Positions 7,861 through 33,577 of a stretch of DNA of 64,000 nt are shown here, piece after piece. Origin of the DNA: Pirellulales bacterium. GTDB lineage: Bacteria > Planctomycetota > Planctomycetia > Pirellulales > PALSA-1355. A model generated the notes under the pieces. That model was not told where the DNA came from. It worked only from the letters and a program-made list of their open reading frames with translations, and searched no databases. The translations under genes and the position numbers were made by a program. Numbering within the stretch: the first letter of the stretch is position 1; every line of letters begins with the position of its first letter. Where the stretch lies: assembly GCA_963733035.1 (NCBI GenBank), contig CAVTBU010000004.1:384001-448000 (forward strand), written 5' to 3'.

Positions 7861-7869
7861 ACTGGAAAC

Positions 7870-9986: not shown

Positions 9987-10715
9987 ATGTCGCTACTCGT
10001 CGCCAAGAACGTTTCGAAGGAATATGGGACCGGATCGGTCAAGGTTCAGGCACTGCGTCAGGTGGACGCGGCCGTTGAACTCGGCGAATTTCTGGCGGTG
10101 ATGGGGCCTTCGGGCTGCGGCAAGAGCACGCTGCTGCATGTGCTCGGTGGCATCGATCCGCCGACCTCGGGCAAGGTGTTGCTCGACGGCAAGGACTTAG
10201 GGGGCCTGGACGACACGGCTCGCAGCATTCTTCGTCGGCGTCGCCTCGGCTTCGTATTTCAGCGGATCAATTTGCTGCCCACACTTTCGGCAGTGGAAAA
10301 CGTGGCGCTTCCGCTGCGCATCGATGGCATCGGCCGCAATATCGCACATGCTCGAGCGGCGAGTTGTTTGGAACGCGTGGACATCGCCCATCGGTCGGCT
10401 CATTACCCCCATGAAATGTCCGGCGGTGAACAACAGCGAGTGGCCATTGCCCGGGCGTTGGTAATCAATCCCGCGGTGATCATGGCCGACGAACCGACCG
10501 GGGCGCTCGATAGCCACACGGCCCATCGCATCCTGGAGCTCTTGGTCGATTGTGCTCGTCAAGGACAGACGATCGTAATGGTCACGCACGACCCAAACAT
10601 GGCCCGGCAGGCCAGCCGCGTGCTGGTTATGCACGACGGCCGCATCCAGGACGCTGCCGACCTTCCTGGTGCCGATCAAGCAGCGAGTCTGCCCACGTGG
10701 GGCGAAACGCGATGA
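9987..10715 (+). CDS. ABC transporter ATP-binding protein, LolD/MacB-like
   Basis: Walker A GPSGCGKS, signature MSGGEQQRVAIARAL, ADEPTGALD, VTHD. Confidence 0.96.
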   Translation: MSLLVAKNVSKEYGTGSVKVQALRQVDAAVELGEFLAVMGPSGCGKSTLLHVLGGIDPPTSGKVLLDGKDLGGLDDTARSILRRRRLGFVFQRINLLPTLSAVENVALPLRIDGIGRNIAHARAASCLERVDIAHRSAHYPHEMSGGEQQRVAIARALVINPAVIMADEPTGALDSHTAHRILELLVDCARQGQTIVMVTHDPNMARQASRVLVMHDGRIQDAADLPGADQAASLPTWGETR

Positions 10716-13219
10716 ACCTGCTATTCCTCATTGCGCGCGGCTGGCGGCAGCGTCCGGGACGCACCATTTTATCGGCAGCGAGCGTGACGATCGCCATTGC
10801 CGCCGTGCTGGGCACGGCCCTCGCGCAATCGAGCGTGCGGCGTGGAATGCGCGAACTGACGCGTGTCGTCGACAAATATCCGGCGGTCGAAGTCGTTTCT
10901 GCGTCAGGCGGCCGATTCGAGTCGTCTCACGCGCCAAATCTCTCGCAATTGCCAGGCGTCCAGAGCGTCGTTCCCGTCGTGGCCAGGGCCACCATGGCCA
11001 GGGTCAATGGCAAGCGATTTCGCACGGTGCTCGCGGGCCTGCCGGTGTCGAACAAGACGGCGTGGAAGACGCTCGCGGTGGCCGAAGGCCGCGCGTGCGA
11101 TCGGGAAGGCCAGGCAATACTCTCGTCCTCAGTGGCCAAGAGCATCGGGGCGGGGCTCCAAGATCGTGTCACCGTGATCACGCGACGGGGACCGCGCTCG
11201 GCCACAATCGTCGGAATCGCCGACGCCGGAGCTTTGGCAGCCTATGCGCCGGGGGCGGGCCTCGTCATGCCGCTGACGGACGTGCAAAGCTACTTCGGGC
11301 TCACCGGTCAGCTTGACCGCCTCCGTGTGTTGCTTCACTCACCGGATGACCGCCAGGAAGTTCTGGACGCCGTGGCCGGGCGGCTTCCTGACGCGTTAAC
11401 GGTGCAAGCCCCGTCAACACCGACGGAGATGATCGACACAACGTTGCGCTCCACCGAACTGGCATTGAGGCTGGCCGGGGCGCTATCGATGGCGATGGCC
11501 GCGTTCATTATCTTGAACACGTTACGTTTGAATTTTAGCGAACGGCGTCGCGATTTTGCCGTTGTCCGCGTGCTTGGTGCAACTCGAAGGCAACTGGTCG
11601 GACTACATCTACTCGAAGGTCTCTGTCTGGGGGCCATCGGCGCGATGGTCGGCGTCCCGCTCGGCTTCGTCGTGGGGCGCGGCCTGGAACACGCCATGGC
11701 CGCGCTACTCGGAATCGAAGCCATGACCGCCGAGACGCCCTTTGGCGTGATTATCTTCGTCTTGGTCTTGGGGCCCGCCGTCGCCGCGCTAGCCGCGCTG
11801 GTCCCGGCACTGCAAGCCCGCCGCGTGTCGGCCAGCGAAGCCATGGGAGAAACGGAACTTCGGCGCGCCGAGCACTTCCCCTTGTGGGCCGCGGGCCTGG
11901 GCGTGTTGTCCTGGTCTGTCGCCGTCACGTTGGTGCTCCTGGTCGTCCAAGGGCGACTTCCTCCCGAGGCGGCAATTCCGTCGGGTTTGTTGATGCTCGT
12001 GGCCTTTATTACGGTGATTCCCGCCGTCGTCAAACCGGTGGTGCGAGCCGCGGGCTGGGGGCTTTCGCCATGGTTGCGAACCGAAGGAGAACTGGCCGCC
12101 GATCAACTGTTGGCCCGCTCAACTCGCACCGGCCTGACTGTGGGAGTGTTAGTCGTGGCGCTTTCATCCGGCCTCGGATTGGGCACCGCGATCATCAACA
12201 ACGTCGACGACGTTCGCGGTTGGTATCGGCGGTCGCTCTCGGGCGACGTGTTTCTGACGAATTCGGCCGCCTCCGAGGAAACAACCGCCGCGCCAGGTCC
12301 TGGCTTAGGATCGCAACTGGCCGAACAGCCGGGTGTCCAACGGATTGTCGAAATACGCCTGCTGTCGGCCAAGGCGGAAGGGCAGCCAGGCATGTGCGTG
12401 GTGCGCAATTTTGATCCCGAGGTTGAACTTCCCTGGATACTCTCTCCGTCGGCGGAGACGGAACTGCGAGCGAAGCTCAAGGCCGGCGAAGTTGCACTGT
12501 GTGGCGTCATGGCAAAAAAAATTGGGCTCGCGCCCGGCGACCAATTGCGCCTAGAAATCCAAGGCCGGGTATTCTCGTTGCGGGTTGCCGCTTTGGTGAA
12601 TGACTACATGCTTGGCGGCCGCGTCGTTTACCTCGACCAAGCGGCGGCCGAAAAGTTGTTCCCGCTCGGTGCGGCCAGTTTCATGATCGTGCAGGCAAGA
12701 CCGGACACGTCGAGCGATGAGCTAGCCGCCACACTTGAAAAACGCTTCGACGGCCAGGGTATTGTCGTACAGTCGTTTGCCGAAATGCGCCATCAACTCG
12801 ACACGTTGATCGATGGCGTGGTGGCCGCGCTATGGGGCCTGTTGGCGGTCGGTTTTCTCGTGGGAGGTGTCGCCGTGAGTAACACGCTGACGCTCAACGT
12901 GCTCGAACAGACGCGCGAACTGGGACTTCTCCGCATCATCGGCATGACGCCCGGCCAAACGAGGCGTCTCGTCTTTTGCGAATCGCTGTTGCTCGGCCTG
13001 CTGGGAGCGCTGATGGGAACACTGGGCGGAATTACCACGGCCATTGTGATTCACTACTGCAATGAACCGGTACTAGGTCGTTCCATCCCGCTTCAGCTGC
13101 ATGGTTGGCTGTTGGCGGCAAATGCGGGGGGCTGCTTGCTGATTGCGCTTGCGGCTGCCTGGAGACCATGCGTCTGGGCGACGCGTCTTAACGTGCTATC
13201 AGCCATTGCGTACGAGTAG
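10712..13219 (+). CDS. ABC transporter permease with duplicated MacB/FtsX-like domains
   Basis: ATGA overlap with the ATPase; two repeats ERRRDFAVVRVLGAT and EQTRELGLLRIIGMT; multiple TM segments. Confidence 0.94.
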   Translation: MNLLFLIARGWRQRPGRTILSAASVTIAIAAVLGTALAQSSVRRGMRELTRVVDKYPAVEVVSASGGRFESSHAPNLSQLPGVQSVVPVVARATMARVNGKRFRTVLAGLPVSNKTAWKTLAVAEGRACDREGQAILSSSVAKSIGAGLQDRVTVITRRGPRSATIVGIADAGALAAYAPGAGLVMPLTDVQSYFGLTGQLDRLRVLLHSPDDRQEVLDAVAGRLPDALTVQAPSTPTEMIDTTLRSTELALRLAGALSMAMAAFIILNTLRLNFSERRRDFAVVRVLGATRRQLVGLHLLEGLCLGAIGAMVGVPLGFVVGRGLEHAMAALLGIEAMTAETPFGVIIFVLVLGPAVAALAALVPALQARRVSASEAMGETELRRAEHFPLWAAGLGVLSWSVAVTLVLLVVQGRLPPEAAIPSGLLMLVAFITVIPAVVKPVVRAAGWGLSPWLRTEGELAADQLLARSTRTGLTVGVLVVALSSGLGLGTAIINNVDDVRGWYRRSLSGDVFLTNSAASEETTAAPGPGLGSQLAEQPGVQRIVEIRLLSAKAEGQPGMCVVRNFDPEVELPWILSPSAETELRAKLKAGEVALCGVMAKKIGLAPGDQLRLEIQGRVFSLRVAALVNDYMLGGRVVYLDQAAAEKLFPLGAASFMIVQARPDTSSDELAATLEKRFDGQGIVVQSFAEMRHQLDTLIDGVVAALWGLLAVGFLVGGVAVSNTLTLNVLEQTRELGLLRIIGMTPGQTRRLVFCESLLLGLLGALMGTLGGITTAIVIHYCNEPVLGRSIPLQLHGWLLAANAGGCLLIALAAAWRPCVWATRLNVLSAIAYE

Positions 13220-13572
13220 TTCTCGCTCACTTATAGTTGCCCAAACTACCCCGGCCGATGCGACGGACTGTAGGGATTGTGTAACTTCGGCAGCAGTCTC
13301 TCTAGACTCGCCTTGGCCTGCCCGATTTGACAGCGGAAGTGCTGGAAACTCTGGATGCACGTCCGAATTCCTTCGATTTGGGCCCAAAAGTTGCCGTTAA
13401 AGTTTGACTGGTTCGCCAGACACCCACAATCGCCGCGGCTTGACACTCTCCAAAGTGAGAAGATAATGGCCGCTTGATGTAAAGATGCGGGCGATGCGAC
13501 AAATGGCGTAAATGCATCGATCCAATTGACTTTGAAACTTTTGGCTACCTCCAACGGTTTAGGCAGTTGTAG

Positions 13573-14928
13573 ATGACCCAGCTATCGAACGGAAAAGTGT
13601 TAGAGACGACCACCACCGGTTCCGAGCGACTGCTAGCACGTGCTCGGCAAAGTATCGCCGGTGGAGACAACAGCACGATGCGTGTCCTGCCGTACCATCT
13701 GCCGCTGGTCGCTACTCGCGGCGAAGGCTCGCGGATCTGGGATGTCGATGGGCAAGAGTACGTCGACCTGAACATGGCCTATGGGCCGCTGATCTTCGGG
13801 CACCGACCGCCGGCAATCGTAGATGCCGTCGTGCGTCAAATCACTGAGAGTGGCTCGCAGCTCGGCTTCCCGGCCGAGGTCTCTGTGCGGGTGGCCGAGA
13901 AGGTCAAGCGGCTATTTCCGCACATCGACTTGCTGAGGTTTTCAAGCACGGGTACCGAGGCCATCGTGGCGGCGCTGCGGTTGGCGCGAACGTTCACGAG
14001 TAAGAAATACGTGATCGCATTTGAGGGCCATTACCACGGCTCGAGCGACAACATCTTCCATCGCTACCATGCACCGCTCGATGAACTACCCTCGGGGCCC
14101 TATGGGCCGGCCTTGCCGGGTACGTTGGGCATGAACGGAGCGCCGCGCGACGTGTTGGTCTGTCGCTGGAACTCCCCCGAGGCGCTGGAGCAGTGTCTCA
14201 ACGACCACGCCGGTCAAGTAGCAGCGGTCATCATGGAACCGGTCATGGGCAACGGTGGCGTTGTTCCGCCAAACCCTGACTTTTTGGACATCGCCCGCGC
14301 GTTGACCAAGGAGCACGAATCCTTGTTGATCTTCGACGAGGTGATTACGGGCATGCGGGTGGCCGCGGGGGGAGCTCAGGAGCGATTCGGCGTTGAGGCC
14401 GACATCACGATTCTCAGCAAGGCCATGGGAGGCGGGTTCCCCATTTCAGCCCTGGGCAGCACGCGTGAGATCATGCAGTGCATTGCGGAGGGCAAGCTGT
14501 TCCACGGCGGCGTTTATTCGGGCAATACCCTGGTGATGGCCGCCGCCGACGCCGTGCTGGACGAAATGCACCGCGACGGCGAGGCAATTTATGCTCATCT
14601 GGAAAGCATTTCGACTGCCTTGGCGACGGGAGTGGACGAGATTTTCAATCGGTTGGGAATCCCGCATCAGGTACAATATGTGGGCCCGATGATCTCGATG
14701 CTGTTGACCCATGAAGACGTCGGCCCGCTGACGAACTACCGCGAAGTGCGCGCGAGTTGCGACTTCGACAAGTTCATCCGCTTCCAGCATCAGTTGCAAC
14801 GATCGGGCGTGTACTTTCACCCGAACCAATTCGAGCCGATGTTCCTCTCCACCGCGCACTCGCATGCCGACATCGCCAGTGTCCTGGATCGGATCGAGGA
14901 CGGTGCTCGCGCCGTGCTGTTGGCCTGA
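13573..14928 (+). CDS. Class III PLP aminotransferase, GSA-aminomutase-like paralogue (biosynthetic AMT)
   Basis: WDVDGQEYVD, FEGHYHG, LIFDEVITG, PLP lysine in SKAMGGGFP; HGGVYSGN replaces the HemL QAGTLSGN motif. Confidence 0.92.
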   Translation: MTQLSNGKVLETTTTGSERLLARARQSIAGGDNSTMRVLPYHLPLVATRGEGSRIWDVDGQEYVDLNMAYGPLIFGHRPPAIVDAVVRQITESGSQLGFPAEVSVRVAEKVKRLFPHIDLLRFSSTGTEAIVAALRLARTFTSKKYVIAFEGHYHGSSDNIFHRYHAPLDELPSGPYGPALPGTLGMNGAPRDVLVCRWNSPEALEQCLNDHAGQVAAVIMEPVMGNGGVVPPNPDFLDIARALTKEHESLLIFDEVITGMRVAAGGAQERFGVEADITILSKAMGGGFPISALGSTREIMQCIAEGKLFHGGVYSGNTLVMAAADAVLDEMHRDGEAIYAHLESISTALATGVDEIFNRLGIPHQVQYVGPMISMLLTHEDVGPLTNYREVRASCDFDKFIRFQHQLQRSGVYFHPNQFEPMFLSTAHSHADIASVLDRIEDGARAVLLA

Positions 14929-14932
14929 GAGC

Positions 14933-16396
14933 ATGGACCTGTCGCCACAACCGATCCTGGACGCAGCCGAAAGGTATCGGGGCACGTTTGTCGATCTCGA
15001 TGCCGGGCTCGTCGTCGACGCGGCCGATTTCCATGCCGCGCGTTTCCAACTCGCCGAACGCCTCAGTTCGCTCGGGCTATCTCCTGGCGAGCGGGTGGTT
15101 GTCTCGGTCGGAAATGGCCCCCAGTTCGTGGTCACGCTGCTTTCGGTTTTAGCTGTCGGCGGATCGCCACTGCTGGTGCATGCGAAAACACCGGCCGCGG
15201 AGCTGAAACGGACGGCACTGCGGTATGGCGCGCATCTGGTTCTCAGCGATGAATGCCCGCTCGCGGATCTTGAAGCCGCGGGCTTGCCAATTGCTGCCCT
15301 GTCAGCCGGCGAGTGGCTGCGACTTGGCGCGGGTAAAATCGATCCTGGCTTATCGGGCTTCAACGGTGGCTACGTCGAACTGGCCGGAGTGCCACTTCAT
15401 CCCACATCGGGCACGACGGGAGTTCCCAAAGTTGCCGTGCGGCCAGGGCTCGCCGCGACAGAAGAGGCCCGGCATTACATCGAAACAATCGGCATTACCG
15501 CCGACGATACCATCATGGCCATCGCGCCGATGTGCCACGCCTACGCGTATGGGATGTGCGTCATGGTGCCATTACTAAGTGGCGCGTCGATCGTCTCGAT
15601 GCGCGGCTTCCAGGCGAGTAAGGTCTTTCAAGCGGTCGGCGATCATGCGGTCACGATTCTGCCCGCCGTCCCGGCGATGCTTGACGTGCTGCTATTCGGG
15701 GCCGGAGATCGCCTGCGCGGTGCCGCGCGGACCGTGTTATCCGCCGGCTCCCCGCTGTCCGAGCGAACGGCCGAACGTTTTCACGGGAAGTCGGGCCTGA
15801 GGGTCCGGCCGCTCTACGGCACGACGGAAACCGGCGGCATCACGGTCGCTCCCCCGGGCGAGCTGCAGATCGCCGGCAGCTGCGTCGGCCCGCCGATGGA
15901 AGGCGTCGAAGTCCAGGTTCGCCCCCACCCGGCCCATGCCGATTCGCAGCCCGGCGTCGGCAGACTATTTATCCGATCGAGTTCCATGATGGCCGGTTAC
16001 CTGGGGACTGACGGCATCGATGCGTCCATGCTGACCGATGGCTGGTTCGAGACGGGCGATTTGGCGCGGCTCGACGATTCGGGTTTCATTCACCTGTTGG
16101 GGCGCGAAGCCGAGGTCATCAACGTCGAAGGACTGAAAGTCATTCCCTCGGAAGTCGAGGAAGTTATCGCGGCGATTCCGGGAGTCGTCGAAGTCAAGGT
16201 GTATGCCGGAACGCGTAAGAGCGGGGGGCAGTACATCAAGGCGGCGGTCGTCGTCGATAATGGATTGGACGTGCAGGTCATCCGCGCCCACTGCGAACGA
16301 AATCTCGTCTACTACAAACGGCCGGAGCGGATTCTGCCGCTCGACGCCCTACCACGCTCGGCTGCCGGAAAGATCCTTCGCGAGCAGTTGCCGTAG
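14933..16396 (+). CDS. Class I adenylate-forming enzyme (acyl-CoA/acyl-AMP ligase)
   Basis: TSGTTGVPK P-loop, YGTTETG, WFETGD, LLGR, C-terminal LPRSAAGKI. Confidence 0.93.
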   Translation: MDLSPQPILDAAERYRGTFVDLDAGLVVDAADFHAARFQLAERLSSLGLSPGERVVVSVGNGPQFVVTLLSVLAVGGSPLLVHAKTPAAELKRTALRYGAHLVLSDECPLADLEAAGLPIAALSAGEWLRLGAGKIDPGLSGFNGGYVELAGVPLHPTSGTTGVPKVAVRPGLAATEEARHYIETIGITADDTIMAIAPMCHAYAYGMCVMVPLLSGASIVSMRGFQASKVFQAVGDHAVTILPAVPAMLDVLLFGAGDRLRGAARTVLSAGSPLSERTAERFHGKSGLRVRPLYGTTETGGITVAPPGELQIAGSCVGPPMEGVEVQVRPHPAHADSQPGVGRLFIRSSSMMAGYLGTDGIDASMLTDGWFETGDLARLDDSGFIHLLGREAEVINVEGLKVIPSEVEEVIAAIPGVVEVKVYAGTRKSGGQYIKAAVVVDNGLDVQVIRAHCERNLVYYKRPERILPLDALPRSAAGKILREQLP

Positions 16397-16409
16397 CCCG
16401 GGAGTCGAC

Positions 16410-17258
16410 ATGCAATTGGGCAATTGGCAACTCGACACGATCAACGGCGGCCTGTTTCGATTGGACGGCGGCGTCATGTTTGGCGTCGTGCCGCGAACCA
16501 TCTGGAAAACCGTCGCGCCGCCCGATGAGATCAATCGCATCCAGTGCGCCAACAACTGCGTGTTGGCCCGCGATGGAACGCACACGGTGCTGATTGATAC
16601 CGGTTACGGTGGCAAATTCGCGCCCCTCGACCGGCGGTTCTACGCAATGGAAGAAGGAGCGCCGCTACTGAAGGGTCTGGCCGAACTCGGCGTGGCACCC
16701 GACGAAATTGACACCGTCGTTTTCAGTCACTTGCACTTCGATCATGTCTGCGGTGCCACGGAATTTGATTCGGCTGGTCGGCGTGTGCCAATCTTTCCGC
16801 GGGCCCGCCATATCGTCGGCCGCACCGAGTGGGAAGACGCAACCTCCGGTTCGCCGGAACTCGAAACGGCGTATCCGATGGAAGACATTCTGCCACTCTA
16901 CGAAGCGGGACTAATGCTGGTCGTCGAAGACCGGCAGGAAATCGTGCCGGGCTTGCGCGGTGAGGTCACTGGCGGTCATACGCGCGGCCACATGGCGCTG
17001 TTTTTCGAGTCGGGGGGCCAAACAGCGGCCTATCTCGGAGACATCTGCCCCTCGACCGTCCACCTGCGACGAATGTGGCACCTGGCCTACGACACCTATC
17101 CGCTCGACACGCGTCGCCGCAAACCCGAGTTGTTGGCCCGGGCCGTGGACGAGCAGTGGTGGATCATGTGGAATCACGATCCGCGTGTGAGTGCCAGCCG
17201 GGTCGTGCGCGATCCGAAGCGCGAGTTCGTCCCCATCGAGGCTCACCCGAGGGCCTAG
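16410..17258 (+). CDS. MBL-fold metallo-hydrolase, YtnP-like
   Basis: FRLDGGVMFGVVP, LIDTGYG, SHLHFDHVCG, GGHTRGH, NHD; GGAG RBS before ATG 16410. Confidence 0.93.
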   Translation: MQLGNWQLDTINGGLFRLDGGVMFGVVPRTIWKTVAPPDEINRIQCANNCVLARDGTHTVLIDTGYGGKFAPLDRRFYAMEEGAPLLKGLAELGVAPDEIDTVVFSHLHFDHVCGATEFDSAGRRVPIFPRARHIVGRTEWEDATSGSPELETAYPMEDILPLYEAGLMLVVEDRQEIVPGLRGEVTGGHTRGHMALFFESGGQTAAYLGDICPSTVHLRRMWHLAYDTYPLDTRRRKPELLARAVDEQWWIMWNHDPRVSASRVVRDPKREFVPIEAHPRA

Positions 17259-17348
17259 TTCGGTGGGCGGTAACGGTTGCGGAATCCGCAAAACCTGCCT
17301 GTCCAGAACACCCAATCCAATACCCGCAGTTTACTCATTTACGCCATG

Positions 17349-17377
17349 TTGACGTTGTCAAAACCCACTTGTAGAAT
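17349..17377 (+). promoter_or_regulatory. Sigma70 promoter for the reductase-PKS unit, with a palindrome over the -35 box
   Basis: TTGACG (17349-17354), 17 nt, TAGAAT (17372-17377); TTGAC-GTT-GTCAA at 17349-17361. Confidence 0.65.
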
Positions 17378-17476: not shown

Positions 17477-18960
17477 ATGTCCTACCTCCTGCTGACAGGT
17501 TCGACAGGTCTCGTTGGCCGCCATTTGCTAAGAGACTTGCTGGCAGCCGACGTTCCGGTGGCCGCCATGGTTCGCCCCGGCAAGGGCGCCGCCACACTCG
17601 AGGGCATCATGGGCCACTGGGAACAGCAGGCAGGGCGGCGCTGCCCCGACCCGTGGTCATCGGGGGCGACCTGTGCCTGGAGGAGGTCGTACCCGACGAG
17701 GCCCAGCGACGCTGGGTGGCGACACACTGCGACCGGATCTTGAGTTGCGCCGCCAGCATGACGTTTCGCGAAGATAAGCGCGGCGAGCCGTTCCGCACGA
17801 ACGTCGAAGGCACGAAGCATCTGCTCGAGTTGTGCCGCACGAGCGGAATCCGACACTTTCACCAGGTGTCAACCGCCTACATCTGCGGCCTGCGGCAGGG
17901 CAAGATTCTCGAAAGCGACATCGACGTAGGCCAGACGCTCGGCAATGTCTACGAGCAGAGCAAGCTAGCGGCCGAAAAGCTTATTCGCTCGGCTGACTTC
18001 CTTGATCAAAGATCGTTCTATCGTCCCGCCAGCGTGGTCGGCGACTCGAAGTCGGGCTATGTCACCAGTTTCCACGGCTTCTACTTGCCACTGCAACTGG
18101 CTCATGCGATGGCGGGCCGCGTGCCGGTGCGCCAGATGGACGAGCGGTTTTTCGCCAAGCTGGGCTTGCAGGGTCACGAAGGCAAGAATCTCGTGCCGGT
18201 CGATTGGTTGTCGGCGGCCATCGTGTATCTCGTGACGCATCCGGAGCACCACGGCCAGACCTACCACTTGGCCAATTCCGAGCCGGTGCCCGTGGTCGAG
18301 ATCCAGCGGGTGATCGCGGAAGCCATCGAGCGCTACTATCCAAAGCCGCTGGCCACGACGATCTCCGAACAGGAGTTGCAAGCCCTGGAGGGGATGTTCT
18401 ACGAATACATGACGATCTACCAGTCGCATTGGCGCGACGATCCAAAGTTCGACCTGACGAACACCCGCAGGGCATTGCCCCACCTGCCGTGTCCGCGAAT
18501 GACGTACGACGTGCTAATGAAGATTTCGCGTTATCCGGTGGAGCGGAATTTCATCGCTCCGCGCCACGAGAAACCTGCAGTGGCCTGCGACGTCGCTGAG
18601 CAGTTGGGTGAATTACTTGGGGCATCGCGCCCGACGAATGCGTCTCAAGTTGGTTTGCAGGTCACCGGTCCGGGCGGGGGCCAGTGGCAATTGCATCTGG
18701 CCGGCGGCCTCGTTTCGGCGGCCGAGCGTGGGCTGCCGACCGCGAGCGCGGCCGGTTTTCATTTGAACTCCGCCACGTTTCGTTCGCTGTTGGCGAGGGA
18801 ACTGTCGGTTGACGAATCGATCAACTCCGGCCGCCTGGTGGTCCAAGGCCCCAGCCAACGGCTCGGAGAATTGAAGAGCGCGCTTGAGCAAGTCGTATCT
18901 TCTCGAACCGGTGACCATCGGACCGTCCAAGCCATAAATGCCCAAGCGATGAAAGCATAG
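17477..18960 (+). CDS. Standalone thioester reductase (extended SDR, NAD_binding_4 type) with C-terminal SCP2-like domain; apparent frameshift ~17638
   Basis: LLTGSTGLVG, TNVEGT, VSTAYICG, YEQSK, YRPASVVGDS, NLVPVDW; C-terminal GLQVTGPGGGQWQL...SGRLVVQG; adding one G gives GRALPRPVV and joins ORFs 17477-17743 and 17653-18960. Confidence 0.85.
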
Positions 18961-25100: not shown

Positions 25101-28100
25101 TGCTCCCGCGCCAGCTCCCGCTGTAACAGAGTCGAACGGCGCGGCCGGCGTTTCAGCTTCCGCCTCGGCGCAGATCGACGTACTGCACGTTAGCGGAACG
25201 CCGTATGAGCTCGGCTACCAGCAGGGCGCGGAAAAAAAAACGGAAATTCGAGCCCTCCTGAAGCGCGTCGCTGATCTCACCGACGGCGATTGGAGTGAAT
25301 TGCCGATTCCGGCCGAGGCGCGCAAAAATCCCGAGCGGTTCTTTAGCCCCAACCAATGGGAAGAACTGCGGGGGATGGCCGACGCCGTGGAAGTGCCGCT
25401 GGGCAACCTGGCGGCGCTGAATCTGGCCGTGCTCCCCGACTTCGCCGCCAGCGCCGCGCAGGTGGCGCTGGTCACCCACGTTGGCACGCAAATCCAGGTG
25501 CTGCATGGGCTGGCGGGTGAACTTTCGCTGCCGCCGGCCCTCACGGAAATGCTGACACCCCTGGTGCTCGTTCGCGAGCCGTCGCAGGGGTGGGCCTGTG
25601 CCACGGTCAGCTTCGCCGGCGTAATTGGCAGCCTGGTCGGACTGAACGGAAACGGCCTGGCCGCATCGACAGGCACGCTGATCGACACCGTAGCCACCCA
25701 GAACGGCAGCGCAGCCAGTTCGACCGTGAGGGTCGACGGACTGCTGCAGCGCAACGATACGTTGGAACATGCGGCCGAGGGTTTGCGGCATACGCATGCG
25801 ACCCGTGGCTGGACGGCCTGCCTCAGTCATCAGGGACAAAACCGAGTGGCGGCCGCCGAACACAACGGCTCGTCCTTCACCCAACAGTTTGCCGAGCAGG
25901 CCGTGTTCGCCGCGAACCATAGCGTGCTGCATTCGTCCGGCACGGCTGCTCCGGCCGCGTCGGTCGAACGTTTCAACTGGCTCAAGGCTCAATTGTCTTC
26001 CGCCCAACAGCCGCGCGATGCCGGAGAACTGTTGACCATGCTCGGGCGGATGCCGTCGCGGGGGTCGCTCCGCTTGTTGGCCGTGGTCGATGCGTCGCGC
26101 GGCGACCTGCTTGTTGAATGCGGCTCGGTTCGCGAACGCGTGCACATTGGAGCGTTGCTGCCGACAGCGCCCGCCGGCGATCCCGCGACGTTTCGCTCCA
26201 ACGGAACCGCACCGGCTCCCATAGCCAAACAAGCCCCGGCAGCGCCAGCACCTGCGCCGACCTCGTCAGATCTGAAGCAGCCGGCGGAAGTCGATCCGGA
26301 AAGCATGCGGTTCGTACTTCGCACAGTGCCGAGCCCGTGGCCGCAACAGCCCGCTGACTTCCCCATTTGGAAAGGCGCCGTGGCGATCCAGGGAGAAAAC
26401 CCGCTGGCCGACGCGCTGTGCGAACGAATCACCGCCACCGGAGCGACCGTGGTGCGTCTCAGGGAAACTGGTTCGACCGAGGCCGCCGTGGCAGAACTCG
26501 AGCGGCATTGGCAGCAGCAACCCATCACGCATCTCTTTCTGACCACGCTCCGCGATGAGCAGACACCCGACCGCACAAATGCCGAGGGCTTTGTGCAGGT
26601 CTGCAACCGCCAGGTGATGCTTCCCTACTTTCTCTGCCAGCGGCAAATGCAACTCGCCGGCGATGCCAAACGGCTGAGCGATTGCACCGTCGTGGCGGCA
26701 ATTGATCTGGCGGGCGACCTCGGTTTTTCGGGCAACGTCGCTTCGCCCGAGTCGGGCTTCGTCACGGGGCTGATGAAGTCCCTGTTGCTCGAATACCAAA
26801 TCATGCGCGAGCAGAAGGGCTTTCTGGCCAAAGCCATCGACGCCCCAGGCAGCGAACCCGTCGCGGACCTGGCCGCCAACATTTGTCGCGAACTGGCCCA
26901 TGGCACGAACGACTATGAGGTCGCATTTGTCGGTGGAAATCGGTATCTGCAAGTTGGACTGCCCGTCGCGGCCGAGATGCAATCGACCAGCGACGTCCGG
27001 CCCGGCGGCACGTGGGTACTCACCGGGGGCGCCCGCGGCATCACGGCCGATTGCGGCCTGGAATTGGCAAAACGCTTCGGCCTGAAGCTTCATCTGCTTG
27101 GCACGACTCCGCCGCCGACGCTCGACCCGGCGTGGCGCAATCTCGACGAGCAACAAACCGCCGCCCTGCGCGGCAAGGTGATCATCGAGGCACGCCAGAA
27201 CGGACAGAAGCCCAACGAAGCCTGGGCTCGAGTGGAAAAGGCGATCGAGATCGACCGAAACCTGCGGGCATTCGCCGATGCCGGCATCGACGCGACGTAT
27301 CACGTGTGCGACGTGACGGATCGCGCCGCGCTGGCCCGCGTGCTCGATGACGTCCGCCGCAAGGACGGTCCAATCGAAGGTATCCTGCACGGCGCCGGAA
27401 TCGAGCAATCTTGCCGCTTCGAAAAGAAGACGCCGCAAGCCGTGCAAGCGACGGTTGGAGCCAAGGTGGTTGGCGCCTACTACCTGATGGAGCTCACCCG
27501 CGTAGATCCGGTGAAACATTTCATCGGCTTCGGTTCGATCAGCGGGCGGCTCGGCAGCAACGGCCAGACCGACTATGCGGCCGCCAGCGACATGCTTTGC
27601 AAGTTGATCGGTTGGTACCACACGCAGCGACCCGAATGTCACGCCATCGCCTTCCATTTCCATCCGTGGGATGGCGTGGGCATGGCCGCCAGGCCCGACA
27701 CGGTAGCCATGCTCAAGGCGAGCAACCTGCGACTCATGCCCAAGCGCACCGGGCTGGCCCATCTGCTCCGCGAATTGTATGCCAGGCCAGCGGATACCGA
27801 GCTGATGATCACCGACTGGGAGTATCACCAGCGCTATTACGGCACGACCTTCACCGAGACCGCAAAACGCACCGACCTGCTTGGCGCACCCGGCCAAGCC
27901 GTGCCAACGTTCGGAGCGCCGCGGCAGGATGGCAGCCAACAGCCTGCCACGCCACATATTGCCGACCGCGTGGTGCTCCGCATGGCCGACGCACCTCTGC
28001 CTGGCGCTGGTAGCCAGCCGCTGCCAGCCTCGGCATTTTTGCTCGGACAGAATTCCGATGCCGACGCATTGGCCCAAGCGCTTACGGCTCGCGGTGTGAG

Positions 28101-30432
28101 CGTCGTGCGGCTTCCGGCCGAAGGAGATGCCAACGCGGTATGTGCGGCTCTGGAAAAATCGTATGAGCAGAGTCCAGCCCGCTGTCTTTTCCTTTGCACG
28201 GCCCGCGACGCGGAAGCCGCGAACCTGAACGACCGAGCAAGTATCAGCCAACGGGTTCAACGCGGCGTCTACCTGCCCTATTGGGTCACGCGGCGTTGGT
28301 TCCAACTGGTCAGCAAGAACCCCGAGCCCGCAACCGTCGTCGCGGTCACGTCACTTGGCGGCGACTTTGGTTTTGGTAATCCCGTGCCAAGCCCCGAAGG
28401 AGGCTCGTTCACCGGCCTGCTCAAGTCGATCTTCGTTGAAGACGCCCGCTACGACCACGCCCGCTTCAAAGTAAAAGTGATCGATGCTCCCGCCAATGAG
28501 CCGCCAGCCCAGCTTGCGGACGCCGTTTGCCAGGAGCTTGGCGGCAGTGGACCGGAAGTGGAGGTCGCCTGGTCTGGCGGTAAACGTCAGGTGGTGGCCG
28601 TCTCGCGCGAGCCGGTGGAGAATCTACCGCTAGGCGATCTACCGCGCGGCGGCGTATGGGTGATCACCGGCGGCGCCCGGGGCATCACGGCTGCAACGGC
28701 GCTCGAACTGGGCCGCCGGTATGGCCTGAAATTGCATTTGCTCGGCAAAAGCCCAGCGCCCGAGGCGAACCCGCCGTGGCGAAACTGCACCGACGAGGAG
28801 CTCAAGAAGATCAAGGCCGAAATCGTTCGCAAGGCCACGCTCGAAGGGCGTTCGCCCACGGACGATTGGGACCGCGTTCGCAAGGATCGGGAGATTCAAG
28901 AGTCGCTCGACAAATTTGCAGCGGCCGGCGTCGCGGCGACCTACCACTCGTGCGACGTTGCCGACTGGGACGATATCGACCGCGTGCTCAAGAACATCCG
29001 CGCGGCCGATGGTCCCATCTCCGGAATTGTGCACGGTGCGGGCTACGCCAAGAGTTTTCGGTTCGGCACCGGCGTGGGTAATAAACTCGAGGCGACGATT
29101 GCGCCCAAAATCGACGGCACGCTGGCGCTGATGCACCTGACCGCGGGCGACCCGCTCAAGTATTTCGTCGGCTTTGGTTCACTCAGCGGCCGTTTCGGCG
29201 GCAACGGGCTCAGCGACTACGCGGCCGCCAACGACGCTCTTGCGAAGATCTGCGGCTGGTTTCGGCAGCGACGGCCTGAGTGCCACACGGTTTGCTTCCA
29301 CTGGCAAACCTGGGACGCCGTCGGTATGGCGCTGCTGGCAGACGGTGTCGGGATCACCAAGAATGCGTTCAAGATGGACTTCATTCCGCCGGAAGAAGGC
29401 GTTAACCACCTGATCGACGAACTTCGCGCCGGTGCGCCAGAGAGCGAAGTGCTGATCACCGACGGTTTTTTTCAACGACAGTTTTATCCTTACGATTTCG
29501 AGCGGCCGCTGCCCGGTTCGAGCGGCGCCTCGGCGGCGGCACCGCTTCGAGCACCCGCGGAAAAACCATCCTCGCTCGGTCCGCTACTTTCGGCCTGGCA
29601 GCCAGGCTCCGTCGCGGCGGGCACCGCGCGGATTGACTTCGATCCCGAGTCCGATCCTTTTCTGAAGGAACATCGGCTGAAGCAAAAGCCTTTCCTGCCG
29701 GGAGTGGTCGGCGTTGAAGCCCTCTGTGAAGCGGCGCGTTGTGCGCTGGGTCGCGATGAAATCCGCGAGATTCGCAACGTCCGGATTGTTAATGGCATGT
29801 CGTTTCCGACCGGACCACTGACGGCGCGCGTCGAAGTAACGCCGACAGAAAGCGGGCTCGGCTGCCGGTTGCTCACCGAGCAGCGCGACCGGCAAGGCCG
29901 CTTGATCGATGCCAACCGTCTGCACGTCGAAGGTGTGGTACCCACGGTAAGTAGCGGCCACCCAATCGCAGCCGACCCGCCCGGGCGACCGCCGCTGGGC
30001 TGGTTCCCGCATGCCTATCCGGATGACGGACTGTTGTATCACGGGAATGGGCTCCGCTGCCTGAAAGCCTGCGCCTATCAATACGACGGTGGCTGGGGAC
30101 AAATACTTGCTCCGCCGCTCGCCGAATTGGCCGGACCGCGAGGCGGCGAGGGCTGGATCACGCCGATCGCCGTCATGGACGCCTGCGTGGTGGCCTGCGG
30201 CAGCTTCCTGTTCCTGCAGTTTGGCGGCGTCGTCGAAGTGCCTTACGAGTTCGAACACATGCAGATCGCCAGGCATCCCCGGTCCGGCGAGGAATGCATG
30301 GTCCGACTCTATTTCCGCGAGCGAGACGAACGACACAGCCGCTTCGATTTTACCCTCTTCGGTGACAGCGACGAACCACTAGTGAAAGTCGTTGGCTATC
30401 GCACGATTCGAGTCGGCGCGGGAGGCCGATAA
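19151..30432 (+). CDS. Iterative PUFA-synthase-like type I PKS, ~3760 aa: KS-KS0-ACP2-AT-ACP2-AAT/C45-like-KR-KR-DH; apparent frameshift ~19834
   Basis: KS1 [23 protein letters not shown]2 DAGQSS; four LGIDSIK ACPs; AT GHSYG/SAFH; two TGGARGI KRs with [17 protein letters not shown]; adding one C gives LLGARALQLG and joins ORFs 19151-19933 and 19798-30432. Confidence 0.93.
22078..25085 (+). repeat. Four near-identical ~250-bp ACP-coding repeats (~22078-22330, ~22465-22720, ~24442-24692, ~24835-25085)
   Basis: Identical peptide [70 protein letters not shown] four times, with synonymous DNA differences. Confidence 0.97.
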
Positions 30433-30436
30433 CGCA

Positions 30437-31159
30437 ATGAGCGTCACACGCACGCGCTACGCTCGACTCTCCGAACTACCGCCGGATGCGGCTGCGCGCT
30501 GGCTTTCAGCGGACGAACGCCACGCGTACGGCACGCTACGTTCGCCAGAGCGACGCACCACCTGGCTGGCAGGTCGATTCGCGGCAAAGCGATTGCTTTT
30601 GGAAATGCTTGCCGAAGAGGGCGGCGAGCCCCAACCGGTCGCGGCCGATGAGATTCACATAGAATCGCGATCGTCGCGGTTTGGCCATGGCGAACGGCCC
30701 CTGTTGTATTTCCGCGGTCGTCCAATGTCCTACGCCATTTCGATTGCCCACACGAACCGAGGCGTCGTCGTGGCAGCAAATCTATGCGCCGAGGTTGCGC
30801 TCGGTGTCGACTTGGCACCGACTTCAACGTCGACACGCGGCTCGCTTAATTGGACGTTCACGGCTGCCGAGCGGCGCTGGCTGGCAACGACCCATGCCGA
30901 GCAATTCCAGGCAGAACGTCTCTGGACAATGAAAGAGGCCCTCTACAAAGCATGCCAATGCGGCGAGGGCTTTGCACCTCAGAATATCGAAGTGGTTCCT
31001 GGCCTTCCGCCACGCTATCCGTCATTCGATTCGGCCAACTTGCGACAACTCCAATGTTGGCAAGTCGACGGTCATATCGCGTGTTTGGCCATTGTCAAGA
31101 ATGTTCACAAAGCCTTGCCGACGAATCCGGCGAACGACATGCTTCGCTCGGCCGCGTGA
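30437..31159 (+). CDS. 4'-phosphopantetheinyl transferase (Sfp-type)
   Basis: WLAGRFAAK, ISIAHT, LGVDL, WTMKEALYKA; starts 4 nt after the PKS stop. Confidence 0.92.
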   Translation: MSVTRTRYARLSELPPDAAARWLSADERHAYGTLRSPERRTTWLAGRFAAKRLLLEMLAEEGGEPQPVAADEIHIESRSSRFGHGERPLLYFRGRPMSYAISIAHTNRGVVVAANLCAEVALGVDLAPTSTSTRGSLNWTFTAAERRWLATTHAEQFQAERLWTMKEALYKACQCGEGFAPQNIEVVPGLPPRYPSFDSANLRQLQCWQVDGHIACLAIVKNVHKALPTNPANDMLRSAA

Positions 31160-31225
31160 CCATACACAGAATTCGTGCTCCTTTACCATACAATTCACCT
31201 GCAAATTGCCTGAGAGAATAAAGCG

Positions 31226-31990
31226 ATGATTGATCTCACCGGAAAAACGGCCCTCGTTACCGGCGGTTCCCGAGGCATTGGCCGTGCCTGTGCCACGCGA
31301 TTGGCGGAAGCGGGCGCGGACGTTGTGCTCAACTACGTCACGAGTTCGGCGGCCGCCGACGAAGTGGCCGAAGTTGTCCAGGCGATGGGCCGCAATGTGG
31401 CGGTCGTCAAGGCCGACGTGAGCGAACGGGACGACTGCGAGTCGATGATGCAGTTCATCGGCGAGACGTTTGGCAAGCTCGACATCCTGGTGAGCAACGC
31501 TGCCACGGGCGGGTTTCGGCCGATGCTGGCCATCACGCAGAAGAACTTCGAATCGACGATGAAGACCAACGTGATGGCCCTGATCCACCTGGTGCAGGCC
31601 GGCTACAAGTTGTTCCAGAAAGCCGACGGCCGTGCCAAGGTCGTAGCCATCTCCAGCCACGGATCGCACATGGCTCTGCCAATGTACGGAGCGGTGGGTG
31701 GTTCCAAAGCCGCTCTGGAAAGCTTCGTGCGGCACTTCGCCCTCGAACTCGGCGGTCAGGGCATCAATCTAAACATCGTGAAAGCCGGGCTCGTCGATAC
31801 CGACTCCACCCGGAGAATCCCGTACGCCGAACAGTTGTTTGCCGCCCGCGGAATGCGCAGCATGACCGGCGATCGGTACCTGCTGGCCGAAGATGTCGCC
31901 AACTGCGTGCTGTTTCTGTCGAGCCCGCTCAGCGATATGGTGCAAGGCGAGACACTGACGGTCGACGGCGGAGCAGCCGTGCACGCTTAG
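31226..31990 (+). CDS. SDR oxidoreductase, FabL-like enoyl-ACP reductase
   Basis: TGGSRGIG, LVSNAATGGFRP, SSHGS, Y-x6-K motif YGAVGGSKAALES as in FabL. Confidence 0.8.
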   Translation: MIDLTGKTALVTGGSRGIGRACATRLAEAGADVVLNYVTSSAAADEVAEVVQAMGRNVAVVKADVSERDDCESMMQFIGETFGKLDILVSNAATGGFRPMLAITQKNFESTMKTNVMALIHLVQAGYKLFQKADGRAKVVAISSHGSHMALPMYGAVGGSKAALESFVRHFALELGGQGINLNIVKAGLVDTDSTRRIPYAEQLFAARGMRSMTGDRYLLAEDVANCVLFLSSPLSDMVQGETLTVDGGAAVHA

Positions 31991-33366
31991 TCACTCGTTG
32001 AACTCAGCGTCCGACGCACTTGCGCGGCAAATTGGTCGAGCAGTTTTTTGGACGCGGCCGCGTCAAAGTAGTGCGGATCGGTACGTAAGCAAAGCGATGT
32101 GCGGCCGGCGTAGTCAATCACGATCACCGCGGCACGTGTCAATGGCCGCACGGGCGGCACTCCGCCGATCCACTCGAGCGTCAGGTCGCCACAAGTCCAT
32201 GGGTCCCCGAGTTTCGAACTCGTGGGGTCCGCCACGTATCGGCCCACGTTGCTTAGTACGGCGGTCGCAAACGACCGCCGCCGGCGCATCGCCCACGGAA
32301 GCAAACCCGGAATATTTCTCGCGAAGGCCACGCCCCCCAGGAAATACAGCGCCAGTTTCCAGTTCTTGATACGAGCGGTTTCCGCTTGTACGACGTCCAG
32401 TAGCTGCTCCGGGTCGTTGGCCTCGGCCATTGTGGCCGTGACAAAGCCATAGCCGATGCGATTGGCTGCGGGCATCGCCGCCTCGGCTCGCGTTCGCACG
32501 CTAACCGGCACGTTGATCCGCAGACGGCCTTTCGCCGGTCCGCGATGTTCGAGGTTCCAGCTGCGCAGGACCAGCAGCATGTCACGCAGCAAAAGATCGT
32601 TCGTGGTCGTCCGCTGCCGTTTGGCCGCCTGCCGGAGATCAGAGGATTCCTCGAGCGAGAGCGTTTCGATGTCGAATGCGAGCGGCTCGCGTTTGGACGA
32701 ATTAGGAGTGCGCGGTGGTGCGGCAAGCACCCGCGGCGCGCGAAACAGAATCGCCGCCCATACCTTAAGCGTATACCAGGCATCGCGCACACCGCCCCAG
32801 ATCGATGGGGCACGCGATCCATCGCTTGCGATTGCGCCGCGCTGTCGCAAGACGTTCGGCTCCAGCAGCCGCAGCGATGCGGGCTCACCACCACTGGCAG
32901 CGCGATAAAGCCCGAGAAAATCCTGCACGAATTGCAACCCGGCGAGGCCGTCGCAACAGGCATGGTGGAATTCAAAAACAACCCGAGCCGATTCGCTTCC
33001 CGAACGCACCCAGGTACGCAGACCAGTCTGCTTCCTCAGGTCGAGGGCACCGCCCGCGGGATAAGCCAGCGGCGCGCCGCCCGGCCCCCAATCCAAGCAC
33101 GGTGCTTCCGATGCAGCAGAAACCCAGCGTGGGAGTCGACCGCTATCGTCCACGCGGGCGTGCAGCAACGGGTGCCGCTGAATCGCTTCGGTCAAGGCTC
33201 TTTCGAATCGCTGCCGGTCGAGTTCACCGATGAAGTGCAATTCAACCGGAAACGTCGTTGGATACGAGGGCCCGTCGTCGAGGTAGTAGTAGTACTCGAA
33301 CGGCGTGAACTCCAGCGGCAGCAGCGAGGCCGCGGATGCCAGGTCGTTGCCAGTGCTAGGGTGCAT
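31987..33366 (-). CDS. Standalone condensation-domain/PapA5-like acyltransferase
   Basis: RHPLLHARV, FHHACCDG (HHxxxDG), TTNDLLL, VPVSVR, VLSNVG; start taken at ATG 33366. Confidence 0.85.
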   Translation of the reverse strand: MHPSTGNDLASAASLLPLEFTPFEYYYYLDDGPSYPTTFPVELHFIGELDRQRFERALTEAIQRHPLLHARVDDSGRLPRWVSAASEAPCLDWGPGGAPLAYPAGGALDLRKQTGLRTWVRSGSESARVVFEFHHACCDGLAGLQFVQDFLGLYRAASGGEPASLRLLEPNVLRQRGAIASDGSRAPSIWGGVRDAWYTLKVWAAILFRAPRVLAAPPRTPNSSKREPLAFDIETLSLEESSDLRQAAKRQRTTTNDLLLRDMLLVLRSWNLEHRGPAKGRLRINVPVSVRTRAEAAMPAANRIGYGFVTATMAEANDPEQLLDVVQAETARIKNWKLALYFLGGVAFARNIPGLLPWAMRRRRSFATAVLSNVGRYVADPTSSKLGDPWTCGDLTLEWIGGVPPVRPLTRAAVIVIDYAGRTSLCLRTDPHYFDAAASKKLLDQFAAQVRRTLSSTSD

Positions 33367-33577
33367 CCGTCCCAGTGCCGCCCGAGTGGATCTCGTCGCC
33401 GGCCGGGTTTTCGCCGGGCACGTCGCCGCCGGTGCCCGTGGGCCCGGAACCTTCGCCACCGGTGCCGCCGGAGATGCCCGAATCACCAATTCCAGCCCCA
33501 ACCGGATCGCCGTTTTTACTGCACCCGGCAAGGCCCAAAAGGCATGCCAACGTGGCGGTGAAAAGTAGATGTTTCAT
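33356..33577 (-). CDS. Small Gly-rich lipoprotein (73 aa)
   Basis: GGGAG RBS; MKHLLFTATLACLLGLAG-C lipobox; low-complexity G/S/T/D/P tail; stop overlaps the acyltransferase start. Confidence 0.75.
   Translation of the reverse strand: MKHLLFTATLACLLGLAGCSKNGDPVGAGIGDSGISGGTGGEGSGPTGTGGDVPGENPAGDEIHSGGTGTDAP

Follow-up and report, generated by a model that had tools for sequence, protein, structure and literature searches.

What does a planctomycete make with a giant lipid-type polyketide synthase (PKS) whose gene lies among those for an aminotransferase, a reductase, an acyltransferase and several exporters? The question is raised by a 64,000-nucleotide stretch of a Pirellulales genome (GenBank assembly GCA_963733035.1, contig CAVTBU010000004.1, positions 384,001 to 448,000; hereafter the window), in which co-located genes fill positions 9987-33366, on the plus strand throughout except for the last, the acyltransferase gene. 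An earlier note on this DNA had named nine gene products here and proposed an undescribed route to an N-acylated long-chain amine, reminiscent of the polyamine arms of zeamine and fabclavine. Searches with Pfam and NCBIfam profiles found all nine products (Table 1). Judged from its sequence, the locus is most likely a secondary-lipid gene cluster typical of Pirellulales that builds and exports a long-chain lipid with a nitrogen-bearing acid group. We grade a nitrogen-bearing product, as the note had foreseen, as likely. Our best reading of how the nitrogen enters, a tentative one that we place somewhat below an even chance, is that the aminotransferase (AMT) and a neighbouring coenzyme A (CoA) ligase provide an acid containing nitrogen, to which the PKS chain is linked after its reductive release.

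A gene cluster conserved across Pirellulales

The relatives that have names are Pirellulales and Planctomycetota metagenome-assembled genomes, which confirms that the window comes from a planctomycete; the cluster occurs in planctomycetes of both soil and water. Related genomes are cited here by G numbers and TR loci by L numbers. Six genomes match the PKS piece over its full length, and the contigs of four (G003, G016, G009 and G023) reach both ends of the cluster. Gene order in these four is identical from two hypothetical open reading frames (ORFs) upstream of the cluster to the acyltransferase gene; the contigs of the other two relatives end inside the PKS gene, with the downstream half kept. 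The clustering is not chance, given an order held in 4/4 relatives that reach both ends. A second family of the same taxonomic order, f18 (G230 and G410), has a divergent MMPL transporter gene followed by genes for a metallo-beta-lactamase (MBL)-fold hydrolase, the PKS, a phosphopantetheinyl transferase (PPTase), a Rieske oxygenase, a FabL-like short-chain dehydrogenase/reductase (SDR), the stand-alone thioester reductase with its SCP2 tail (TR), AMT, ligase and acyltransferase. The downstream part of this order recurs in Blastopirellula marina DSM 3645 (L098) and in L103. Rearranged loci gain the Rieske ring-hydroxylating oxygenase (G230, G410, L098), for which a query against L103 returned no match. 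No ATP-binding cassette (ABC) transporter lies beside the f18 clusters, which have the MMPL transporter instead. That the same parts persist through rearrangement and through a swap of exporters (ABC and resistance-nodulation-division (RND) systems against MMPL) speaks for a single pathway whose product is exported.

To describe the wider family, we searched species-representative genomes by alignment with TR-SCP2, which yielded at least 584 relatives, nearly all of them in Planctomycetota. Neighbourhood counts refer to the best 80 of these at least 584 loci with 10-kb flanks, and flanks were taken as adequate where at least 6 kb was available on both sides of TR (33 loci, 24 with a PKS). A PKS lies beside TR in 46 of the best 80 loci. 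AMT is found in 17 of them at 58-86% identity, against 34-39% for a hemL decoy. Among the 24 PKS-bearing loci with adequate flanks, AMT is present in nine and absent from 15, and on a TR tree of 30 loci its state changes at least seven times, with at least five changes forced by starred branches. Within the cluster family, AMT counts as accessory. The acyltransferase is a core gene and more constant than AMT: besides ten loci, a homologue lies just beyond the PKS in 5/5 further genomes, two with AMT and three without, including Bythopirellula polymerisocia Pla144. None was found near the PKS in G310, G436 or G022. Many planctomycete loci (L065, L066, L068, L074, L079, L083, L099 and others) place a TR-SCP2 homologue beside an MMPL-type transporter with no PKS within 10 kb, which suggests a wider reductase and exporter lipid module.

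An aminotransferase, ligase and hydrolase that travel together

AMT is a class III aminotransferase dependent on pyridoxal phosphate (PLP), and its PLP lysine is kept. We ruled out that it is the housekeeping hemL, since it scores 375 bits on the hemL model against a cut-off of 527.3 and a separate true hemL (48082-49340, 560.7 bits) lies in the window, adjoining hemB (46976-47983). The top solved relatives of AMT are entries 4zm3 and 4zm4 (320 bits), with HemLs next at about 250-301 bits; the AMT domain of MycA, which acts on beta-ketoacyl thioesters, gives 187 bits. AMT and 4zm3 have in common a lid insertion, together with the motifs DLNMxYGP, FEGHYHG and YFHPN..EP.FLSTAH; the HemL 2e7u has none of these. 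We take 4zm3 and 4zm4, named in the database just 'Aminotransferase', to be PctV wild type and its K276R variant, an assignment in keeping with the PLP-lysine position, where one entry has Lys and the other Arg. PctV is presented in passages of two papers as the 3-aminobenzoate synthase of pactamycin biosynthesis (PMC12836137, PMC5879953).

The AMT stop codon and the ligase start are 4 nt apart. All 19 solved chains matched by the ligase at E<=1e-30 are CoA ligases, among them MenE, FadD13, malonyl-CoA synthetase, 4-coumarate-CoA ligase (4CL), and chlorobenzoate and feruloyl ligases. The name 'acyl-AMP ligase' in the earlier note is not supported: the nearest solved relatives are MenE, FadD13, 4CL and malonyl-CoA synthetase, and no fatty acyl-AMP ligase (FAAL) is among the 19 chains. 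The MBL-fold hydrolase scores 191 bits on the YtnP model against a cut-off of 425, and its top solved relative is PDB entry 3esh (162 bits), followed by OPH, MPH and AiiA; it resembles lactonases and phosphotriesterases.

These three genes keep together. The ligase lies directly downstream of AMT in 17/17 AMT-bearing loci, and the MBL gene follows the ligase in all 15 AMT loci with that region in view. The distance from the trio to TR varies by comparison: the two are adjacent, separated by an MMPL gene, or about 5 kb apart. Four AMT-less clusters (L052, L056, L059 and G022) carry orthologues of the ligase and MBL (~52% identity) with a gene for an aromatic-amino-acid ammonia-lyase, like histidine and tyrosine ammonia-lyases, directly upstream of the ligase, in the place of AMT. 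The lyase scores 520 bits on Pfam Lyase_aromatic and 548.5 bits on the hutH model (cut-off 539), with tyrosine aminomutase and tyrosine ammonia-lyase models lower, and an enoyl-CoA hydratase gene lies near it in clusters of this type. On the simplest reading, the trio is a swappable cassette consisting of an acid-forming enzyme, a ligase and an MBL hydrolase. An ammonia-lyase in AMT's place upstream of the same ligase points to AMT having a role in making the ligase's substrate, and the cassette reading would thus have AMT act upstream of the ligase and not downstream of TR.

Variant clusters also hold aromatic-type tailoring genes in addition to the Rieske oxygenase. In the Bythopirellula type of cluster, the ligase that precedes the MBL gene is a different one; this type also carries a fusion of a luciferase-like monooxygenase with an O-methyltransferase, as well as an FAD oxidoreductase. 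In G009 (L016:17993-19486), a gene fusing parts like TrpF (PRA-isomerase) and tryptophan synthase alpha lies between the MBL and TR genes, a further hint of anthranilate or aryl-amine chemistry. G023 has an enoyl-CoA hydratase gene between the ABC genes and AMT.

The polyketide synthase and its embedded Ntn-hydrolase domain

The PKS is of the iterative, Pfa-like type I kind, and its orthologues are single open frames of 3670-3814 aa. Its domain order is ketosynthase (KS), chain-length factor (CLF), two acyl carrier proteins (ACPs), acyltransferase domain (AT), two further ACPs, an N-terminal nucleophile (Ntn)/C45-like domain, two ketoreductases (KRs) arranged as (psiKR)KR, (psiKR)KR, and a dehydratase (DH). 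The first KS has an intact Cys-His-His triad, with the Cys in ACASS and both His kept. The second KS, the CLF, has no Cys; the residue in its place is Gln in the window, G003 and G016 only, and Glu, Thr or Ala in other orthologues. Decarboxylative priming by a conserved 'KSQ'-type CLF is not supported, as the Gln is not kept among orthologues. The AT carries the motifs GHSYGE and SAFH, which mark malonyl-type domains. Two TGGARGIT motifs are present, and neither KR has lost its Rossmann motif or its Lys/Ser/Tyr residues. The DH belongs to the PKS type, with the FabA model reaching only E 0.0028 and no FabA-type DH found at the Pfam cut-off. The PfaA model (TIGR02813) gives the PKS 946.1 bits, below its cut-off of 1010.1, and the cluster contains no PfaB, PfaC or PfaD genes.

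Four GIDSI motifs identify the ACPs. At the protein level, the four ACPs and their linkers are near-identical, forming tandem pairs at 21.9-23.0 kb and 24.3-25.1 kb that flank the AT. Repeats of this kind collapse easily during assembly, so that the count of ACPs may be uncertain; 3 or 4 are seen in relatives.

Between the last ACP and the first KR sits a domain whose AlphaFold2 model (AF2; pLDDT 90.6) has the Ntn-hydrolase fold. Foldseek matched this model to isopenicillin N acyltransferase (IAT; TMq 0.70, E 3e-16), acid ceramidase (0.69) and NAAA (0.66). Its nucleophile column holds Ala in the window, which has no Gly-Cys autoproteolytic site there, and Cys in 4/25 homologous PKS-embedded domains. 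N-acyl transfer by the embedded C45/IAT-like domain is ruled out for the window's lineage by this change of the nucleophile from Cys to Ala. A search for fused Ntn domains among longer proteins gave only four fragments of the same PKS family, and a literature search for a peptidase C45, IAT or Ntn domain in a PKS found no description.

Predicted reductive release, acyl transfer and export

TR is predicted to release the PKS product. Its motifs TGxxGxxG and YxxxK are invariant in eight relatives, and its top solved relative is the myxalamid reductase MxaA (4u7w). The G003 orthologue has a full NAD_binding_4 domain, which the window copy would regain with a 1-nt correction at 17637. For the SCP2 tail, the window copy gives 20.2 bits, narrowly short of the cut-off of 21.3, and the intact orthologue of G003 gives 27 bits. 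In the acyltransferase, H134, H135 and D139 of the HHxxxDG motif are invariant and G140 nearly so (at least 90%) among 28 homologues. Its AF2 model (pLDDT 88.6), which has the two-lobed fold of chloramphenicol acetyltransferase-like enzymes, retrieved condensation and cyclization (C/Cy) domains of nonribosomal peptide synthetases (NRPSs) with E values to 1e-20, fungal O-acyltransferases and, ranked 15th, PapA5 (1q9j). NCBIfam profiles give it 54 bits on WS/DGAT (cut-off 310) and 35 bits on PapA5 (cut-off 396), and no single subfamily cut-off is reached.

The cluster has no PfaD-like gene, and the only candidate for the enoyl reductase (ER) is the FabL-type SDR. Its gene is always found at the 3' end of the PKS, and in the synteny comparison it ranks at or near the top in each relative with 63-91% identity. 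The PPTase gene is syntenic in all relatives compared.

Candidate exporters accompany the cluster on both sides. The ABC ATPase, whose top NCBIfam matches are LolD, DarD and MacB, each under its cut-off, is kept upstream of the cluster in G003, G016, G009 and G023, and the ABC permease is 57-66% identical and syntenic in four relatives. Two RND systems flank the cluster, one on the left (TetR, membrane-fusion protein (MFP) and AcrB; 70-5604) and one on the right (MFP and AcrB). The right-hand pair lies directly upstream of the acyltransferase gene in the same orientation. AcrB keeps its syntenic place in G001, G002, G003 and G009; beside the clusters of G016 and G023, none was found.

A proposed pathway and its main rival

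We propose that the PKS, with the FabL-like SDR as a trans-acting enoyl reductase, would build a long, largely reduced acyl chain that TR-SCP2 would release as an aldehyde or alcohol. AMT and the CoA-type ligase would make and activate a small carboxylic acid that bears nitrogen, with an amino-aryl acid the likeliest candidate by the precedent of PctV and 3-aminobenzoate. This acid would enter the lipid either as the starter of the PKS or by way of the HHxxxDG enzyme, which would form an ester or amide, and the ABC, RND or MMPL systems would carry the lipid to the envelope. AMT would serve as the first enzyme of a mobile three-gene cassette (AMT-ligase-MBL) and would not aminate the growing chain in the manner of zeamine. 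The predicted product is a long-chain lipid capped by a nitrogen-containing, probably aromatic, acid; its logic would make it a Gram-negative counterpart to the mycobacterial lipids that depend on PKS, FadD, PapA and MmpL.

Several points weigh against this proposal. The product, the substrate, the activities and each chemical step are all deduced from gene sequences. Priming by an aryl-CoA is unexplained in a PKS whose only AT is malonyl-type, whose Ntn domain is dead and which has neither a KAS III nor a loading domain, and the pathway leaves the role of the MBL hydrolase unexplained as well. The margin of 4zm3 over HemL in the AMT comparison is small (320 against 301 bits), the PctV identity of 4zm3 and 4zm4 is our assumption, a search by these codes having found no paper, and the NCBIfam GntE model gives AMT 343 bits. 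GntE is an aldehyde transaminase, which would suit the rival below. The swapped acid may be urocanate and not a phenylpropanoid, because the lyase scores as a histidine ammonia-lyase, just over the cut-off. L061 has a fragmented ligase and an MBL gene with neither AMT nor lyase, and the f18 arrangement, with AMT directly after TR, would also suit a terminal transamination. Lastly, the loci surveyed are a selected top slice of mutually related sequences, so the counts are not independent; they describe the family and do not test it.

The main rival is the chemistry set out in the earlier note, in which AMT would transaminate the aldehyde released by TR to a long-chain primary amine or amino alcohol, the HHxxxDG enzyme would N-acylate this with the ligase-activated acid, and a ceramide-like or cationic amide lipid would be exported. 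We regard it as a real but clearly less probable alternative. Release by TR with subsequent transamination is well precedented for polyketide amines, as in actinobacterial polyketide alkaloids, and HemL-family enzymes, like GntE, act on aldehydes. All four enzymes that this route needs are present and conserved, and in f18 the genes for TR, AMT, ligase and acyltransferase are contiguous on one strand in that order. Passages of two reports likewise describe the zeamine AMT as similar to glutamate-1-semialdehyde (GSA) aminotransferase and as transaminating a released aldehyde (PMC5811116, PMC3870968). However, AMT travels with the ligase and MBL genes and not with TR, from which an MMPL gene or about 5 kb separates it in the second and third of the arrangements described above, and four AMT-less clusters have an ammonia-lyase where AMT would precede this ligase. 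The ligase is as like aryl- and small-acid CoA ligases as fatty ones, and the acyltransferase is equally present in clusters that lack AMT. Transamination of a TR aldehyde is thus possible but fits the neighbourhoods less well than a role of AMT and ligase in supplying a starter or acyl unit, which the 17/17 linkage and the lyase swap favour.

Frameshifts in the deposited sequence

The TR gene and the first KS are each split over two frames by a 1-nt deletion. Contigs of a soil-metagenome relative (~94% identical) have an extra C behind 17637 and another behind 19834, and each restores the frame. The housekeeping hemL in the window is also frameshifted, near codon 45, which suggests indel errors across the assembly. 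Since hemL is broken too and the relatives are in frame, the breaks in TR and the first KS are probably assembly errors. A Ser/Thr kinase gene at 44973-46932 also seems split, into two overlapping ORFs.

The alternative is that both deletions are real and that this genome carries a decaying pseudogene cluster from which no product is made. Both frameshifts do stand in the deposited sequence, and reads could not counter this reading, as no sequencing run containing the source strain was found (the best run shared 0.16 of words); with only relatives' contigs to compare, the status of the breaks stays inferential. We nevertheless consider decay the clearly less likely reading. A frameshifted housekeeping gene in the same window points to assembly indels, the remaining cluster genes are all open, and away from the two sites TR and the PKS match intact orthologues at 79-83% identity and contain no other stops.

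Locus layout and flanking genes

The positions of the cluster genes are collected in Table 1. GC content is uniform over the region. Two conserved planctomycete ORFs on the minus strand (5761-7860 and 7818-9464) diverge from the ABC genes. Neither has a Pfam match, and a protein atlas placed them only in DUF3352-like and hypothetical planctomycete clusters; one of the two is DUF3352-like by language-model features. Both are syntenic in G003, G016 and G023, and G009 shows only the first, as the fetched stretch ends there. We do not count them as parts of the cluster, because they are absent beside f18-type clusters. Rfam families had no match in 5000-38000. Sigma-70-like promoter matches at 13440-13467 (11/12) and 17349-17377 (10/12) occupy the two widest gaps between genes, those preceding AMT and TR; a promoter and terminator scan gave these two promoter-like sites against 2.4 expected from shuffles, which is not above expectation and provides no evidence of promoters.

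Table 1 Genes and embedded features of the lipid cluster, with positions in the window.
Feature	Position	Strand	Basis
ABC transporter ATPase, LolD/MacB/DevA-like	9987-10715	+	Pfam ABC_tran 115 bits; ATG at 9987
Duplicated FtsX/MacB-type ABC permease	10712-13219	+	Pfam FtsX in two stretches, MacB_PCD
HemL/4zm3-like class III PLP aminotransferase (AMT)	13573-14928	+	Aminotran_3 223 bits; 451 aa, separate gene
Adenylate-forming acid-CoA ligase	14933-16396	+	AMP-binding 157 bits, AMP-binding_C
MBL-fold hydrolase, YtnP lactonase-like	16410-17258	+	Lactamase_B 70 bits
Stand-alone thioester reductase with C-terminal SCP2 (TR)	17477-18960	+	NAD_binding_4; 1-nt deletion near 17637
Iterative Pfa-like type I PKS, 11.3 kb	19151-30432	+	Pfam pieces; 1-nt deletion near 19834
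PKS-embedded Ntn-hydrolase (C45/IAT-like) domain without nucleophile Cys	25165-26187	+	NCBIfam C45_proenzyme 79 bits, cut-off 85
Sfp-type phosphopantetheinyl transferase (PPTase)	30437-31159	+	ACPS 50 bits
FabL-like SDR, putative trans-acting enoyl reductase	31226-31990	+	adh_short_C2 198 bits; FabL model 256 bits, cut-off 328
Stand-alone HHxxxDG acyltransferase, condensation/PapA5/WS-DGAT superfamily	31987-33366	-	Condensation 38.8 bits; motif HHACCDG
RND pump (AcrB) and membrane-fusion protein	33705-38383	-	ACR_tran 1054 bits; HlyD_D23

Relation to known systems

In its logic, the cluster stands closer to mycobacterial lipid loci and to wax-ester and alkyl hydroxycinnamate formation in bacteria and plants than to zeamine and fabclavine. 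Mycobacterial loci combine PKS, FadD, PapA and MmpL proteins to make phthiocerol dimycocerosates (PDIM), phenolic glycolipids and sulfolipid-1, and p-hydroxybenzoate is brought in for the phenolic glycolipids. The cluster is alike in having an iterative or reducing PKS, a ligase that would load an acid, an acyltransferase with the PapA5 fold (1q9j) and an RND or MMPL exporter (MMPL in G230 and G410). It differs in showing no sequence-level orthology (35 bits on the PapA5 model), in a ligase that its nearest relatives show not to be FAAL-like, in release by TR-SCP2 and in belonging to a Gram-negative planctomycete. Wax esters and alkyl hydroxycinnamates are made by a fatty acyl reductase, a CoA ligase and a WS/DGAT or BAHD HXXXD acyltransferase. 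The NAD_binding_4 ('male sterility') reductase, CoA-type ligase and HHxxxDG acyltransferase of the cluster correspond to these, and sister clusters add an ammonia-lyase, whereas the alkyl chain here would come from a dedicated PKS and the WS/DGAT score is 54 bits against a cut-off of 310. Pactamycin biosynthesis pairs PctV with an AMP-forming ligase and an ACP to supply its starter. There, as here, a HemL-like PLP enzyme adjoins an adenylate-forming ligase beside a PKS, if 4zm3 is PctV as we assume; the pactamycin PKS is small, whereas that of the cluster is a giant iterative lipid synthase.

The zeamine (zmn10-14, zmn19; Serratia, Dickeya) and fabclavine (fclC-G; Xenorhabdus) systems, as outlined in parts of two papers (PMC5811116, PMC9113149), likewise have a Pfa-like KS/CLF/ACP/AT/KR/DH synthase, an extra KR, a GSA-like AMT, a TR, a condensation-type enzyme and export genes. 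The same passages describe their AMT as fused to a PfaD-type ER (Zmn12/FclE; PMC5811116, PMC9113149). The cluster instead has one 3,790-aa polypeptide in place of PfaA/PfaC/PfaD-like proteins, and a stand-alone accessory AMT tied to a CoA ligase and MBL where theirs is ER-fused. It has a FabL-type SDR and not PfaD, no FabA-type DH at cut-off and a dead Ntn domain, and it belongs to another phylum. The likeness drawn in the earlier note holds for the stand-alone TR and condensation-type enzyme beside a KS-CLF synthase. Membership does not follow: the cluster works partly like these systems without belonging to them, because it lacks both the defining ER-AMT fusion and the PfaA/C/D split and the cluster family can do without AMT. 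From Xenorhabdus bovienii, a polyamine-only fcl cluster that has no NRPS has already been reported (PMC9113149). In Pseudomonas fluorescens MYb115, the SgaAB sphingolipids also arise from an iterative PKS that feeds a long-chain amino lipid, according to a portion of the report (PMC12134224). Nitrogen enters there through an alpha-oxoamine synthase; the cluster has none, and nitrogen would enter through the class III transaminase (PMC12134224 for the former).

Programmed amination of the zeamine and fabclavine kind, in which AMT would make beta-amino groups from selected beta-ketoacyl-ACPs, the two KRs would play the parts of the Zmn10 KR and Zmn13, and TR would release a polyamino alkyl chain, matches the catalytic inventory given for Zmn10-14 in part of one paper (KS, CLF, ACPs, AT, two KRs, DH, ER, AMT and TR; PMC5811116) and the presence of a stand-alone C-type enzyme like Zmn19, but is very improbable here, as AMT is not fused to a PfaD-type ER (the ER being an SDR), reaches 320 bits with 4zm3 and 187 with the AMT domain of MycA, is absent from 15/24 PKS-bearing loci of otherwise the same PKS architecture and changes state at least seven times on the TR tree. 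Because the AMT-less loci keep both KRs, the two-KR programme would be independent of AMT. The weight that remains beyond the cassette pathway and its chemical rivals goes to roles not foreseen.

Discussion

We uphold the view of this locus as a PKS lipid cluster, conserved and uncharacterised, that combines reductive release with an acyltransferase and exporters. We found no published description of it in work on planctomycete PKS, PUFA-type or zeamine-like biosynthetic gene clusters or on the Blastopirellula marina PKS; supplements, which lay outside our scope, might list such clusters. The available part of Shulse and Allen 2011 gives planctomycete types I and J only and does not contain the word aminotransferase (PMC3098273), and that of a 2026 landscape survey of hybrid lipids of the PUFA type makes no mention of planctomycetes (PMC13291983). 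The cluster would combine a Pfa-like synthase for secondary lipids with reductive release and acylation in the manner of PapA5. This route is similar to lipid pathways already known, but no description of it was found.

Orphan biosynthetic clusters abound in planctomycetes, and hardly any lipid or natural product of these bacteria has been tied to genes. This cluster family is widespread and modular, and its alternatives (an AMT cassette, a lyase cassette or none; ABC or MMPL export) amount to natural experiments. An AMT variant is carried by the cultured type strain Blastopirellula marina DSM 3645 and an AMT-less variant by Bythopirellula polymerisocia Pla144, so comparative lipidomics of cultured strains could link the genes directly to a new lipid class. 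The PKS also holds a domain type, an Ntn-hydrolase fold without its nucleophile, of which we found no earlier description.

More speculatively, and with considerable doubt, Pirellulales and their relatives may make an unseen class of envelope lipids. These would have very long PKS-derived alkyl chains and interchangeable head-group acids: amino-aryl where AMT is present, aryl- or imidazolyl-acrylate where the lyase is, and oxygenated or methylated variants. A reductive step would release the lipids, a PapA5-like enzyme would couple their parts, and pumps of the ABC, RND or MMPL kind would export them. If this is true, these Gram-negative planctomycetes would possess a counterpart of the phenolic glycolipid and PDIM biology of mycobacteria, built on a PKS with a unique dead Ntn domain.

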